Shown in pieces: positions 2,516 to 9,335 of a stretch of 20,000 bases of DNA; position 1 is the stretch's first letter, and each line of letters opens with the position of its first letter. The notes beneath the pieces were generated by a model. The model ran no database searches, was not told the DNA's origin, and saw only the letters and a list, made by a program, of their open reading frames with translations. Origin of the DNA: an uncultured virus (IMG/VR IMGVR_UViG_3300006072_000005) (taxonomy: Duplodnaviria; Heunggongvirae; Uroviricota; Caudoviricetes); the IMG/VR virus record IMGVR_UViG_3300006072_000005; one strand, given 5' to 3'. The translations under genes were made by a program, and so were the position numbers.

Positions 2516-3340
2516 ATGGCAGAAAACAACCCTTTACAGCAATACTTTAGACAACCAAAAATATTTGTAGATTTACCTTCTAAAGGGATCTATAATAAGC
2601 CCGGTTCTTTAAACAAACACAGTAATCTAGCTGTATATGGATTAACCGGCATGGATGAAATCATTTTAAAGACACCTGATGCTTTACTGTCAGGCGAAGC
2701 AATTACACGAACTGTTAAAAGTTGTTGTCCAGATATTACAGATCCTTATGAATTACCCAGTATGGATATAGAAATGCTAGTGGTGGCTATTAGAGTAGCA
2801 ACCTATGGCAATAGTATATCACTGACCCATACATGTAAAAAATGTCAATCAGAAAATGATTATGATGCAGATTTAGGAATTATTTTAGAACATTATAAAC
2901 ATGCGTCATTCTCTAACAAAATCAAAGAAGATGAAATTGTTATAAATGTAAGACCGTTATCATACAAAGAATCAAACAAATTCAACATAGAAACTTTTAA
3001 CCTTCAAAGAAGATTATTTCAAATAAACAATGTTCCAGAAGCTGATCAAGAAGGATTCTTGCGTGAAATATATGAATCGCTTGGAGTAATACAAACAAAC
3101 ATGATGTTTGAAAGCATTGAAAGCATTGAATTACCTGACACTGTGGTAGTTGAAAGAGAATTCATTAAAGAATTTGTAGAGAAATGTGACCGAGCTGTTT
3201 TTCAATCACTTAAAACACAGTTTGAAAATAATATTAAAAATATGAAGTATCCAGATATTGATATAGTTTGCTCTTCTTGCGATACAGCTGACAAAATTTT
3301 ATTGGAGTTAAATCAGACAAATTTTTTCGTTGGCGCCTAA
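2516..3340 (+). CDS. T4 gp26-like baseplate hub / tail assembly chaperone (274 aa)
   Basis: NPLQQYFRQP...LPSKG N-terminus, T..DEI.LKTPDALL.G and D...L..AIR.ATYG motifs, two CxxC pairs (CKKC, CSSC), and an NFF near the C-terminus. Confidence 0.8.
   Translation: MAENNPLQQYFRQPKIFVDLPSKGIYNKPGSLNKHSNLAVYGLTGMDEIILKTPDALLSGEAITRTVKSCCPDITDPYELPSMDIEMLVVAIRVATYGNSISLTHTCKKCQSENDYDADLGIILEHYKHASFSNKIKEDEIVINVRPLSYKESNKFNIETFNLQRRLFQINNVPEADQEGFLREIYESLGVIQTNMMFESIESIELPDTVVVEREFIKEFVEKCDRAVFQSLKTQFENNIKNMKYPDIDIVCSSCDTADKILLELNQTNFFVGA
3319..3328 (+). promoter_or_regulatory. Putative -1 programmed ribosomal frameshift site (A AAT TTT / T TTT TTC)
   Basis: Two overlapping in-phase X XXY YYZ heptamers. 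The -1 frame is stop-free and continuous with the 3346..3561 ORF. Confidence 0.7.
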
Positions 3341-3345
3341 CAAAG

Positions 3346-3561
3346 ATGACTAACGAAGATATTAAAGATTATCTTGTTAGGCTAGAAAAAGAAGTTTTAG
3401 ATTTTAAAGAAGAATTATTTAGAATAAGTTGGTTCATGCGTGGTGGAGTGAATATAAACGATTTATTTCACACGTACAGTCATGAAGATATCAAGTTGAT
3501 TTCAGAAATAATTAAGGGTAATACAGAAGCTACTAAGAATTCAGGCCTGCCACTGATTTAA
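3346..3561 (+). CDS. gp51-like small chaperone ORF (71 aa), probably the C-terminal extension of a frameshifted product
   Basis: Follows the gp26-like gene in its -1 frame; ISWFMRGG motif; no convincing Shine-Dalgarno before ATG 3346. Confidence 0.65.
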   Translation: MTNEDIKDYLVRLEKEVLDFKEELFRISWFMRGGVNINDLFHTYSHEDIKLISEIIKGNTEATKNSGLPLI

Positions 3562-4460: not shown

Positions 4461-4468
4461 TATTTATC
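4461..4468 (-). promoter_or_regulatory. Late-promoter-like GATAAATA
   Basis: Plus-strand TATTTATC, 19 nt upstream of ATG 4442. Confidence 0.6.
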
Positions 4469-4478
4469 AAGTCATTTA

Positions 4479-4498
4479 AGAAGAACTTGCGTTCTTCT
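4479..4498 (-). other. Perfect 8-bp hairpin with GCAA loop (possible terminator or RNA 3' end)
   Basis: Minus strand reads AGAAGAAC-GCAA-GTTCTTCT; there is no long U-tract after it. Confidence 0.5.
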
Positions 4499-4562
4499 AT
4501 TCTTCGCTTTCGCTCGAACTATTAAGGATTAGTTAACAACACTTATAACGCGAAGCGTTTAA

Positions 4563-4935
4563 GATATTATCCAGATCGTTCAGTCACACTTTGCCCTGGC
4601 GGGCAAAATGACAAACATTATCCGAGTCGAACATGCTCACTCTTACGTTTTGGCATTACAGTGGCGGTCATCCGGTACCACGAGCCAAGTCTTTATATGA
4701 CGGCAGTCTAATAAACAACGTAAAACGTTTATTAAACCCGAGGTTTCTCTCCTCTCTTTTAGCCTGTAAAATATATTTTCTTGCTGATCAAACGGGTTTA
4801 TTCATAGGCATATCCCATCCGCGTCCTGTAAAGGATAGTGATCCAGCTACTCTGCGCCAAGCAGAGATTCCTTGCCGCCACACATCAGAGCGGATTCAGG
4901 GCACAATACTATCGCCTGTGCGGGCTTATTTGGCG
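4563..4935 (-). ncRNA. Candidate large structured non-coding RNA, family not recognised
   Basis: GC-richer intergenic region with about ten stems found by eye and two possible loop pseudoknots. Stem extensions work as G-U pairs only on the minus strand. Boundaries are approximate. Confidence 0.6.
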
Positions 4936-5379
4936 TTATTTTGCCTGGTTTTCTTGAAGTTTGCGAATATGCGAACCATGTACACGCACTTGAATATGAC
5001 CATTATAATAGTCATTTGATTCTAAAACTCTGCGTGAAAATTGTTCTCTAGCCTCTATATAACTGCATTCTGCCTTGCTTCGACAGAGAAACAGTATCTC
5101 TCTTGTAAAATTTTCTGTGCCTAATGCCGTAACATCCTTGCTTAATTCTGGGCTTGAACCATAATATTCCCGCCAGTCTGAGTCAATTTTGCTACGAATT
5201 TTCTTTTTTTTCTTGTTGCCGTTCTTTAATTTTACTGTCTTGTATGTGGTTTTTGAGAATTTAGCTAGTTTTTTGCCTATGTACATGCGACCGTTAGTAG
5301 TGTTTGTTATGATATAAACAAATCCTATACAGTCTTCTGGTAGTGTTTCTATTGGTTGAGATTGATAAGTCCAAGACAT
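4936..5379 (-). CDS. Short single-domain GIY-YIG endonuclease (endonuclease II/Seg-like, 147 aa)
   Basis: GFVYIITNTTNGRMYIGKK motif, Y.GSS, F.REIL, a catalytic-type Glu in YIEAREQ and a YYN motif. Confidence 0.9.
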   Translation of the reverse strand: MSWTYQSQPIETLPEDCIGFVYIITNTTNGRMYIGKKLAKFSKTTYKTVKLKNGNKKKKKIRSKIDSDWREYYGSSPELSKDVTALGTENFTREILFLCRSKAECSYIEAREQFSRRVLESNDYYNGHIQVRVHGSHIRKLQENQAK

Positions 5380-5391
5380 TAACTATGTAGT

Positions 5392-5661
5392 TTATTCGGA
5401 CTCACCCTCCCCTGCCTTTTGATTTGCCTTGCGTTCTGCCTTGTTTTTATCTAACCATACGCGATACTGTTGCACATGTTCCCTGCGTTCCCGGGCAATA
5501 ATGCGTATTTGTGCCAGCCAGTATCGCATGTTTTCCCCAGCACGACGAGTCCCACGAGCTTGCCATTTTTGATTTTCTTTAAAGTATTCCTTAAAAGCAT
5601 GCATCAAACGCTCATGTGACTCTTCATTTTGATAGGGACTGGGTTCTACGTGTCTACTCAT
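5392..5661 (-). CDS. Small basic helical protein, possibly histone H1-like (Hc1-type) DNA-binding
   Basis: 89 aa, Arg/Lys-rich; the RGTRRAGENMRYWLAQI....RERR segment resembles the G.KAAG.RARK.L..I....K..R pattern. It overlaps the end of gp46. Confidence 0.5.
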   Translation of the reverse strand: MSRHVEPSPYQNEESHERLMHAFKEYFKENQKWQARGTRRAGENMRYWLAQIRIIARERREHVQQYRVWLDKNKAERKANQKAGEGESE

Positions 5662-7432
5662 GTATCTCTAAATCGTTTGCATAGCTGGTAAAACCGTTTT
5701 CTTTGATAACTCTCAGTACATTGTTTACACGGCCTATCAGCTCTTCCTTGTGACTGATCAAGAATATGTTTTTCTTGCGTTCACGACCCATCTTTTTCAG
5801 TATGCCCAGGGCACCTTCTACTCCTGAAGGATCTAGTCCGTTGTCTATGAGCTCGTCAACAAACAGCAAATTAATACTTTGATATAGACTTTCCCATACA
5901 TCACGGAAAGCCCACGACAAGCCCAGTATGAGTCTATTGCGTTCGCCTCGACTTAGATTATCAAAATCTAAATCTTGCCCCAGCTGTGTGATTAAGACCG
6001 TCAAGTCGTTTTGGAATGTAACTGTGTGTGGTAACCCCAGCTTGTCCAAGTAATAGGTCAAGCGATTGTTTAAGTATGCTAGGTTTTGATCTATAATCTT
6101 TTTGCGAATAAATGAATCTTTTGATGTCAGCAATTTCAACAAGAACTCTTGATGATCCTTCAAGCGAGTCAGCTCATTGACCAAGTCCCAAGAAATTTCC
6201 TGCATGGCAGTCATACGCAGTTCTTCAATTTGCTCTTGATACGGATCAGTTTCACCCGCTTTGATAGTCAACTGTGTTTCAAGAGTTTTTAAGTTGTTTT
6301 GATGTTTAAGAGTCTGCTCCACGCTGTCATAGTACGTTGAAGGACGTTGAGTCAGCTCACCCAGGGTAGCAATTTCGGCTTGTATTTTTGACAAATCCTT
6401 AGTGACCTTGTCGAAATACTTTCGGGCCTCGTCAAGGTGCCCTTGTGCTGTTGATGTCATTTCTTCATGCTTGTGATCATGTAGCTCTTGTTCACATGCG
6501 TGACAGGTCTTGTTAGCCAACTTGACGAGCTCGCCGTCGTACTTCGTGACGCTTCGCTCCGCTTGTGCTATCGCACTTTCGAGCGTTGCACGCTCTTTAT
6601 TTAGGCTTTTCAGCTTCGCTGACTTCTCGTCATACACTTTGAGCTCCGCATGCTTCGCAAGCTCAGCGTCAATATCTACGTCCTCCAATTCGACAATGGC
6701 TCTGCCCATCTTTTCTAGCTCTTGAGTATGTTGATTACCCCAAGCCATTTGTTTGGTTAGCAAACTATCAATACTTAATTGTATTTTTTCGTTGCTTTTC
6801 TTTGTAGCTTCGAGATTGGCAGTCTCTTGTGTAATAGCATCTTTAGTTTCTTTAACTTGTTCTTTAAGAGTTTCTGCTTTTTCACTTAGTAATGTAATAC
6901 CCAACAACTGTTCAATGATAGCACGTTGGTCGTTAGCCCGCATACTTAAGAAAGGTTCTGTATAAGTGTTAAGAGCAACAATATGTTTGAACATATCGTG
7001 GCTCATGCCCAGCAAGTCATCTAAGTCCTTCTGGGTTTCACGCATATCTCCTTGAGCATCGTCTGTTTCGTCTGTTTCTTGCTCTTGGTCATCAATAAAA
7101 AACTTTAATATGTTAGGTTTACGCCCACGTTCTATACGATAGAGAACACCATTTTTTTCAAATGTAAGTGTAACCAACATACCTTTGGCGTTAATCTTAT
7201 TGATAAGATTATCTTTTTTAATGTTAGTGAGTGCAATACCGTAAAGTGCATAACTTAAAGCATTTACAATGGTTGTCTTACCTGTACCGTTACGACTTCC
7301 GCTATCATCACCGCCTTGATCTAAATTCTCACCTAATACGAGTGTTAAATTTTCTTTACCAAAGTCTACAGCTTGAGTCTGGTTGCCCACACTCATGAAG
7401 TTACGTACTGTTAGTTCTTTTATTATAATCAT
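5654..7432 (-). CDS. Recombination endonuclease ATPase subunit, T4 gp46 / SbcC / Rad50 family
   Basis: VRNFMS N-terminus, Walker A NGTGKTT, coiled coil with CHAC zinc hook, LSRGE signature, Walker B LLFVDE, and ISH H-loop. Confidence 0.95.
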   Translation of the reverse strand: MIIIKELTVRNFMSVGNQTQAVDFGKENLTLVLGENLDQGGDDSGSRNGTGKTTIVNALSYALYGIALTNIKKDNLINKINAKGMLVTLTFEKNGVLYRIERGRKPNILKFFIDDQEQETDETDDAQGDMRETQKDLDDLLGMSHDMFKHIVALNTYTEPFLSMRANDQRAIIEQLLGITLLSEKAETLKEQVKETKDAITQETANLEATKKSNEKIQLSIDSLLTKQMAWGNQHTQELEKMGRAIVELEDVDIDAELAKHAELKVYDEKSAKLKSLNKERATLESAIAQAERSVTKYDGELVKLANKTCHACEQELHDHKHEEMTSTAQGHLDEARKYFDKVTKDLSKIQAEIATLGELTQRPSTYYDSVEQTLKHQNNLKTLETQLTIKAGETDPYQEQIEELRMTAMQEISWDLVNELTRLKDHQEFLLKLLTSKDSFIRKKIIDQNLAYLNNRLTYYLDKLGLPHTVTFQNDLTVLITQLGQDLDFDNLSRGERNRLILGLSWAFRDVWESLYQSINLLFVDELIDNGLDPSGVEGALGILKKMGRERKKNIFLISHKEELIGRVNNVLRVIKENGFTSYANDLEIHE

Positions 7433-8442
7433 AGGTTACTGTAAATCGATAGTAGTGTATTTTTGTCGTAGGTGTCTGAATCAATGCTGACAATTTGATT
7501 ACTGACAATTTGATCAACACTTTCAAAACTTTGAATATCTATATTAGTGTTAATTTCGATTTCTTTCTTTTCAGCTATCAATGTAAGTTCTCTGATATTG
7601 TAGTCTGCAATGAATTTTTCTTTGATAAAACTTGCTTCTTCAAAACTAATATCAATGTCTAATGCAACACGAAGATGTTGTCTAGGCAGAATAATTTCAT
7701 CGGCACGATCAATCAGTTCACTTAATTTAAGAGTTCGATATGTAGGTTGTCCAGGCCAGCTATGATATACAGGTTGTCCACCCCACTCCAATATCATCAT
7801 ACCACGTTCATCATCCCATGCATCCGAATAGTTGTGCGGGAACGCATTGCCAATATAAACCATGTTTTCATTTTGTTGACGTTTGTGGAAATGTCCACTA
7901 AACCCTAATTCAAAACCTTTAAATGCGTCAACTTGTAGTTCTCCGTGATCCGGCATTTGCACCATGGCATTCATAAAAAATTTAGGAAGTTCAAAATGTC
8001 CAAAGCAATATTTGCCTGTACGTTTGTTTATGTTTTTCCATTCTTCTCCCACCAACCACGGATAAAGGGTGACATCTCCAATAGTAGTAGGCTCGTGTAT
8101 GACAGTAACACCAGGAATGTATTTTCCAAATTCCACAGAGTGTATGTCTCGTTTGTCTTTGTAATACAAATCATGATTACCAGGAAAGAAATAGAAGTTG
8201 TTAAACGCCTGACCCAACTTTTCCAAGGCCCTAAGGCTATAATCCATTGTAGTAATGTTAAGGCTATTACGGTTATGGTGCCAATCACCCATAAAGATAC
8301 CTGTATCACAACCTTCCTCCTTTGCTTTAGCGATATACCAATCCACAAATTCCTCACAATCTTGATTGTGAATTGATGAATTACTTTTAAGACCAAAATG
8401 TATGTCAGTAAAAGCGGCAATCTTTTTAAACATATTACTCAC
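7429..8442 (-). CDS. Recombination endonuclease nuclease subunit, T4 gp47 / SbcD / Mre11 family
   Basis: Metallophosphoesterase motifs DIHFG, GDWHH, GNHD and SGHFH; ATGA overlap with gp46. Confidence 0.95.
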   Translation of the reverse strand: MSNMFKKIAAFTDIHFGLKSNSSIHNQDCEEFVDWYIAKAKEEGCDTGIFMGDWHHNRNSLNITTMDYSLRALEKLGQAFNNFYFFPGNHDLYYKDKRDIHSVEFGKYIPGVTVIHEPTTIGDVTLYPWLVGEEWKNINKRTGKYCFGHFELPKFFMNAMVQMPDHGELQVDAFKGFELGFSGHFHKRQQNENMVYIGNAFPHNYSDAWDDERGMMILEWGGQPVYHSWPGQPTYRTLKLSELIDRADEIILPRQHLRVALDIDISFEEASFIKEKFIADYNIRELTLIAEKKEIEINTNIDIQSFESVDQIVSNQIVSIDSDTYDKNTLLSIYSNL

Positions 8443-9306: not shown

Positions 9307-9335
9307 ATTATAAACTACGCACTTTATAAAGTCAA
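9307..9335 (-). promoter_or_regulatory. Host sigma70-type promoter TTGACT-N17-TATAAT for the gp55-gp47-gp46 operon
   Basis: -35 is plus-strand AGTCAA at 9330-9335, -10 is plus-strand ATTATA at 9307-9312, with a 17-nt spacer. Confidence 0.8.

Follow-up and report, generated by a model that had tools for sequence, protein, structure and literature searches.

Does the coding sequence of a phage recombination gene carry a second, structural message, and if so, which process reads it? The question is raised by a cluster of mini-hairpins inside the gp46 gene of an uncultured virus. The window, i.e., the whole stretch of 20,000 nucleotides that was analyzed, comes from the minus strand of a virus record of 153.7 kb (IMGVR_UViG_3300006072_000005), positions 42,489-62,488. 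Genes for the late sigma factor, gp47, and gp46 are located on one strand of the window and baseplate genes on the other. Additionally, a gp26-like gene with a short ORF close behind it was found at 2516-3561. The gp46 gene (5654..7432, minus strand) encodes a 592-aa SbcC/Rad50-like ATPase (phrog_77, E 2e-102, ORF list and codon map), and the codon map places its zinc hook, CHAC, at 6494-6505 on the same strand. A sigma-70-like promoter upstream of the late-sigma, gp47, and gp46 genes (9307..9335, minus strand) was predicted from 11 of 12 consensus matches only. A gene for a SegE-type GIY-YIG nuclease (4936..5379, minus strand; PF19835, E 1e-34) lies between gp46 and a non-coding region. This region contains the Polynucleobacter-1 RNA motif (Rfam RF01718; 4781..4926, minus strand; 69.5 bits, gathering score 37), also present in 5 of 6 freshwater relatives tested. 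Together with the sequence down to about 4560, the motif may form a longer RNA, possibly a replication primer.

By gp46, the nearest cultured phages are the Pseudomonas phage PA5oct and its kin, with 50% identity. Contigs of relatives include 128 kb rated 35% complete and one of 356 kb rated 96% complete; by arithmetic from these ratings, the record represents about 42% of a genome. Genes for SSB, UvsX, UvsY, a DNA helicase, a short polymerase fragment, a primase, and a DnaB-like helicase were found in the record. The polymerase fragment is a stand-alone one (189 aa, record positions 135,141-135,710) and adjoins the primase and helicase genes.

The first-pass annotation had described nine hairpins and an outer stem on the minus strand of gp46, and all of them read as described on this strand, which is the coding one. 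Two further GCGGAGC units were found in the cluster, at 6643-6649 and 6556-6562. Three of the nine GCGAAGC words of the record fall within one 110-nt stretch of gp46, and the highest density of C-GNA-G hairpins in the whole 153.7-kb record is that of the cluster (6 hairpins per 150 nt vs. 3 in the next-best window). The units follow the Hirao rule for stable DNA mini-hairpins, GC-G(N)1-2A-GC, being represented by five GCGNAGC words and one GCGATAGC. When the whole gp46 gene was shuffled synonymously, none of 3000 shuffles reached 6 hairpins (mean 0.6), the density thus exceeding a codon-shuffled expectation. Six hairpins were reached in 3 of 3000 shuffles of the 266-nt region alone (mean 2.0) and in 46 of 3000 shuffles of the 150-nt core alone (mean 3.3). 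In a record-wide shuffle of 84 ORFs, 6 hairpins were reached nowhere in 300 replicates, the maximum being 4.

The position of the cluster required correction. The proposed extent, 6405-6670, narrows to about 6527-6660 on the coding strand of gp46, and the signal stops before the zinc hook. The cluster sits just N-terminal to the CHAC motif and not around it, the hook part itself not being enriched (2 hairpins observed vs. 3.1 expected). In codons 255-305, GC3 reaches 0.65, vs. 0.37 in gp46 outside codons 255-345. The global fold of the cluster is not unusual (z -1.27 as DNA and -1.60 as RNA). According to PMC13037366, nearest-neighbor models fail to explain mini-hairpin structures. No match over 6405-6670 was found in Rfam 15, BLAST of the cluster gave only chance-level hits (best E 2 in phages and 0.4 in plasmids), and the degenerate core pattern had no matches in 185,579 prokaryote genomes.

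For analysis of conservation, the best 80 of 612 gp46 relatives were fetched, and removal of near-duplicates left 76 of 81 rows, the window included. A clade of 19 rows with 79-100% identity shares a common nucleotide motif. The conserved core (6549..6577, minus strand), recognized by frozen silent sites and by unit counts in relatives, is a chain of four overlapping GC-G(N)1-2A-GC units at 6567-6574, 6561-6568, 6556-6562, and 6551-6557. In the clade, freezing of silent sites across codons 286-294 preserves this four-unit chain; 13 of the 19 rows keep four units, five keep three, and one keeps two. Silent divergence in codons 286-300 is 0.39 of expectation in the 19 clade rows vs. 0.96 in 20 sister rows. 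The best 20-codon value in the clade was matched by none of 5000 column permutations, so the synonymous-constraint scan bore out the predicted constraint, and selection acts here on silent sites. A second, weaker dip in silent divergence (0.64) was found in the same clade, and not in sister rows, at gp46 codons 181-200 (window 6833-6892).

The letters that are frozen are those needed by the mini-hairpin rule. The loop middles vary, codon 288 being Ile or Thr (14 and 14 of 30 rows) and GAA being replaced by GTA in 2 of 30 rows, and the loop G and A stay. Core stems are 2-4 bp long, and neighboring units share bases and therefore cannot all fold simultaneously. The window's own genome keeps three of the four units, unit 6561-6568 being broken by an A at 6566. 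This A pairs with a T at 6575 in a 4-bp stem, 6565-6576. The double change at 6575/6566 is rare, found in 2 of 76 rows vs. three mismatched rows and one row with T-G.

The 19 rows were chosen by eye after the motif had been seen; because this choice is circular, conservation was also counted in two other sets. The first, independent set contained metagenome loci picked only by a conserved non-coding linker 2 kb away, which yielded 39 gp46 matches. At ≥70% identity, 21 rows were available, and one with a truncated alignment was dropped; 13 of the remaining 20 keep four units, six keep three, and one keeps none. The core is absent in all 18 rows below 70% identity. The second set included 35 close rows not selected on the core. 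Three or four units are kept in 28 of these rows, and five rows miss the core or have at most one unit. The core is therefore dispensable or replaceable, being lost in 5 of 35 close rows and absent in 18 of 18 rows under 70% identity. The exact 19-base core pattern had at least 120 viral matches, and 79 of the 80 that were fetched fall in the gp46 frame; in the 96%-complete relative, the four-unit chain is present once. No chain was found in gp46 of the linked cultured phages. Even the two-unit chain pattern had no match in PA5oct or Atu_ph07 and few matches in GAP32 and Phosso, all of them outside gp46.

Outside the core, the listed hairpins differ in their conservation. Pairing is intact in 18 of the 19 clade rows for 6551-6557, in 17 for 6565-6576, in 11 for 6613-6619, in eight for 6652-6658, and in six for 6541-6547. 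The hairpins at 6621-6631 and 6412-6424 and the outer stem turned out not to be conserved (intact in three, two, and three rows, respectively). Satellite mini-hairpins were found upstream of the core on the minus strand. The first (6610..6622), selected and not fixed, contains GCGAAGC at 6613-6619, with GCG AAG used in 29 of 60 rows having Ala-Lys. Two others (6643..6658) include units at 6652-6658, with GCG AAG in 25 of 46 Ala-Lys rows, and at 6643-6649, found in 11 of 76 rows. Elsewhere in gp46, none of 29 Ala-Lys pairs is encoded by GCG AAG. The counts 25/46 and 29/60 include rows found by the core pattern and the rows are related, so the independence of these counts is overstated.

The satellites are also strand-specific. 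In codons 255-284 of the clade, 23 hairpins were found on the coding strand vs. 4.2 ± 1.8 after shuffling, and four on the template strand vs. 2.2 ± 1.4; in sister rows, one hairpin was found vs. 1.8. Sister rows with the same residues lack the hairpin-forming codons. On the 81-row tree, the two sites with GCGAAGC change 14 and 20 times, vs. 24 and 26 for shuffled labels, and because of these numbers of changes they are considered to be gained or lost repeatedly; the clade trees are poorly resolved, and the gain and loss figures are rough counts. The two upstream GCGAAGC satellites are selected and not a by-product. An upstream stem-loop (6581..6595, minus strand) is supported by covariation of the silent pair 6593/6583, the strongest of 164 Glu/Leu column pairs. 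In 76 rows this pair is A-T in 28, G-C in 23, G-T in 24, and A-C in one. Variable hairpins downstream (6524..6547, minus strand), including 6541-6547, are weakly supported (6 observed vs. 1.9 ± 1.3 shuffled) and occur as two main haplotypes. The cluster hairpins are genuine and under selection. The idea of a second, nucleotide-level code laid over the coiled coil is thus supported by the frozen silent sites, the selected satellites, and one covarying stem.

A scan of the flanks revealed a partner of this cluster. Beyond the GIY-YIG gene and the Polynucleobacter-1 RNA, the non-coding DNA was found to hold a pair of mini-hairpins, minus strand and then plus strand. It belongs to a family-wide, non-coding element with hairpins on both strands (4461..4625), herein referred to as the two-stranded element, located 2 kb downstream of the gp46 cluster and defined by an HMM and by the linker-picked loci. 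In the direction of gp46 transcription, it includes a GC-rich hairpin (4593-4604), the conserved linker, a GAA-loop stem-loop on the plus strand (4547-4559), an AT-rich gap, a GC-GAAA-GC unit on the minus strand (4506-4513), a further hairpin (4481-4496), and finally a late-promoter-like word (4461-4468). The element is single-copy in the record. With the HMM, for which 30 loci were used, the element was detected in 54 of 80 loci, the lowest gp46 identity among them being 59%. Among the 26 loci missed, 22 hold less than 1.4 kb downstream of gp46, one has a weak match, and three have none.

In total, 72 distinct linker-picked loci were compared. In 70 of them, the C-GNA-G loop of the best first hairpin lies opposite gp46, on the other strand (69 GAA and one GTA), and the same first hairpin can be seen by eye in the other two; stems vary widely across loci, being 4-8 bp long in this plus-strand hairpin, and the stems of the element covary. 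The AT-rich gap is 8-43 nt long; by contrast, the gp46 cluster is GC-rich. After the gap, a GC-GNNA-GC unit on the gp46 strand was found in 46 of 72 loci, and 15 of these 46 loops are not GNRA. BLAST of the element against phages and plasmids gave only chance-level hits (best E 0.5 in phages); no Rfam 15 family scored above gathering over 4461-4625. In PA5oct, Phosso, and GAP32, a long non-coding stretch is located at the syntenic place (near 76.5-77.9 kb in PA5oct), and the HMM does not match it. In Phosso, a ribonuclease HI gene (7425-7764 of the stretch examined) directly follows the 1-kb non-coding stretch downstream of gp46.

The closest known structures are the mini-hairpins d(GCGNAGC) and d(GCGNNAGC) described by Hirao (PMC13037366). 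Every consensus unit found here is a listed stable variant, with Tm of 71-76°C, and the preferred loop here is also the most stable one, GAA; the corresponding r(GCGAAAGC) melts at 39°C (PMC13037366). Unlike those molecules, the units here overlap in a chain, lie inside a coding gene of a dsDNA phage, and are kept via silent sites. Tandem mini-hairpins bind SSB poorly and are found at the priming sites of G4 and RSF1010 (PMC13037366). In the complementary-strand origins of G4, St-1, and alpha3 and in RSF1010 ssiA, a mini-hairpin is located at a proposed SSB-free priming site (PMC13037366), and the G4-type word GCGAAAGC is carried here by the two-stranded element. As at the ssi sites of G4 and RSF1010, where the hairpin with a mini-hairpin cap is strand-specific, the coding strand is enriched here and the template strand is not. 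G4, St-1, alpha3, and RSF1010 differ in being origins of ssDNA phages or plasmids, with longer stems and demonstrated priming.

The promoters of the N4 virion RNA polymerase have a C-GNA-G loop on a short stem and, according to PMC4496689, are extruded when the DNA is supercoiled and withstand SSB on only one of the strands. Loops and short stems of this kind are also seen here. A stem of ~5 bp with a C-GNA-G loop on the template strand, as in these promoters, was seen in the plus-strand hairpin of the two-stranded element and not in the gp46 core, which has stems of 2-4 bp on the non-template strand. PA5oct is described as having no RNA polymerase of its own (PMC7318152). As for T4-type R-loop origins, T4-like replication and recombination genes are present here, and a transcribed region adjoins the AT-rich gap. 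T4 origins are not known to contain a chain of mini-hairpins. Priming and promoter sites with mini-hairpins have been described before. No published account of a selected in-gene chain with a two-stranded, family-wide partner was found in the literature searched, and the supplements of PMC10690425 may list either motif.

These comparisons suggest that the gp46 element probably acts as folded single-stranded DNA, its loop letters fitting the DNA rule better than the RNA rule. A more specific reading, to which we assign slightly less than an even chance, is that the element is an SSB-excluding signal for priming or loading and is accessory to the two-stranded element. Folding in vivo, a binding partner, and any role in replication are what we infer from the sequence features described above. 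In the proposed mechanism, the coding strand of gp46 would become single-stranded in the wake of a helicase or through displacement by a transcription R-loop. The satellites and every other unit of the chain would then fold into mini-hairpins and resist coating by SSB, and the SSB-free patch could be where the phage primase or helicase, or a host restart factor, lands. The SSB, UvsX, UvsY, primase, and DnaB-like helicase genes of the phage agree with this reading. Speaking against it are the skew results given below, the loss of the core in several close relatives and its absence from gp46 of the cultured ones, the short core stems with their shared bases, and the rarity of the double change at 6575/6566. 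The gp46 cluster would be an accessory priming or restart site of an initiation region whose main part would be the element at 4461-4625. A fork leaving the latter towards gp46 would use the coding strand as its leading template and would meet transcription of the operon head-on, which would make a restart pad in gp46 plausible.

The two-stranded element fits an origin, if one exists here, better than the gp46 cluster does. Hairpins on both strands around an AT-rich gap would be the expected look of a melted origin with two priming or loading sites. This arrangement is one that we take to resemble that of RSF1010 ssiA and ssiB. The cumulative GC skew, proposed as a guide to the origin, did not serve this purpose: its minimum (window about 8880) arises because the gene strand switches there, and coding-corrected skew locates no origin. 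Break points anywhere between 48 and 132 kb fit the skew of the record similarly well, with a weak co-orientation effect that is not localized, and no skew flip was found in 16 sampled stretches of the 96%-complete relative. No mapped replication origin for this jumbo-phage group was found in the literature searched. The full model holds that freshwater jumbo phages related to PA5oct initiate replication at an origin shared by the family, with opposite-strand mini-hairpins around an AT-rich gap, and that one clade has added a priming or restart pad in the silent codon positions of gp46, mid-operon, where the fork would meet transcription head-on. This model is put forward tentatively and is less likely than not. 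If it is true, chains of mini-hairpins with mixed loops would make SSB-free sites generally recognizable in the genomes of dsDNA phages. The two-stranded element is a short, sequence-defined, family-wide origin candidate with a coding-embedded satellite, and experiments with oligonucleotides and a small number of purified proteins could address the question. The gp46 cluster itself offers a clear example from nature of DNA structure being under selection within a protein-coding gene, and silent recoding of such genes may not be neutral.

The likeliest of the alternatives is an element acting in mRNA, namely a small stem with purine-rich repeats to which a protein would bind, adjusting mRNA stability or translation for the gp46 operon or for genes downstream. 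The coding strand is also the mRNA strand, and therefore strand bias alone cannot separate DNA from RNA. In favor of RNA, the cluster has the sense of the transcript and follows a strong promoter-like site, and 24 of 76 rows have G-T at the covarying pair, as is common in RNA. In addition, one unit has a GCAA loop, i.e., a GNRA tetraloop. Because of the G-T pair and the mRNA-sense location, a role in RNA retains a real, if small, probability, and we consider it unlikely: known stable RNA motifs do not include GNA triloops or GAYA loops on 2-bp stems, the consensus fold is weak (-5.2 kcal/mol, with the single-sequence z of -1.6), and the two-stranded element keeps its GNA loop on the opposite strand.

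A second alternative, which seems improbable, is a double-stranded binding site, in which short AGCG repeats would be read by a phage initiator, the terminase small subunit, or a regulator that also binds an A-tract array near the end of the record. The core can indeed be read as five AGCG words, and such an array exists: a third array, at 151,470-151,535 in a GC-richer end region of the record, repeats a unit of GCGAAGC, AGCG, and an A-tract. The AGCG words of the core are irregularly spaced (8, 6, 5, and 5 bases), however, the third base of codon 287 is frozen in 29 of 30 rows although it lies outside these words, and covariation of the stems in the two-stranded element also speaks against a duplex site. 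When the windows of the record are ranked by plus-strand hairpins, the gp46 cluster, the two-stranded element, and the third array all fall within the first four. The pattern of the third array had 105 viral matches, and 71 of the 80 fetched hold at least two same-strand hairpins; matches sharing genes with the record amounted to 13 of 80 and 9 of 80. This array could mark a terminal-repeat boundary or a packaging site. No array resembling it was found at the terminal-repeat boundary of PA5oct, near 39,080.

Another possibility, to which we attach little credence, is a barrier to nucleases or recombination, where the hairpins would stall resection or steer strand exchange beside the GIY-YIG gene and the non-coding region. 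Mini-hairpins resist exonucleases, as stated in PMC13037366, and the element sits in a recombination module consisting of gp47, gp46, and then the nuclease, at whose place the cultured relatives have a resolvase. Against a barrier tied to this nuclease, the GIY-YIG gene also adjoins gp46 in one relative examined.

It is very unlikely that the hairpins arise only as a side effect of local GC richness, of the encoded protein, or of an overlapping gene, and for the core this reading is already largely refuted. The locally high GC3 agrees with it, as does the result that shuffling inside the core leaves half of the hairpins (mean 3.3 of 6). It does not account for the silent freeze at codons 286-300 in the clade, for the rare-codon choice at the two Ala-Lys sites compared with its absence elsewhere in gp46, or for the sister rows that have the same residues without these codons. 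An overlapping gene was rejected, all five other frames carrying stops in 10-19 of the 19 rows. For 6412-6424, 6621-6631, and the outer stem, the by-product reading may hold. Least credible of all is a programmed -1 frameshift. In its favor, many relatives have an A-run behind the core (12 of the 19 clade rows encode Lys-Lys by A-runs at codons 296-297), flanked by an upstream GGAG word and a downstream hairpin in a layout presumably resembling that of dnaX. Against it, the A-run is missing from the window's genome and from roughly one-third of the clade, in which the core is nevertheless kept.

Chains of mini-hairpins were also found beyond this phage group. Five-unit chains occur in 64 viral stretches, and one control pattern in 36; loop letters are mixed in 37 of 56 distinct chains vs. 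9 of 33 distinct ones for the control. Four-unit chains lie near contig ends in 15 of 58 cases vs. 5.8 expected by chance, a bias that breaks in the assemblies may explain. Taken together, these counts are modest evidence for recurrence of the mini-hairpin motif under selection in unrelated phages. The crAssphage chain was considered as support for an origin function and rejected, since the predicted origins in PMC10983915 are placed at the other repL. This chain, a non-coding four-unit one, is located in prototype crAssphage (BK010471.1, about 28,190) about 530 nt upstream of a RepL gene, and similar chains were found in other low-GC gut phage contigs.
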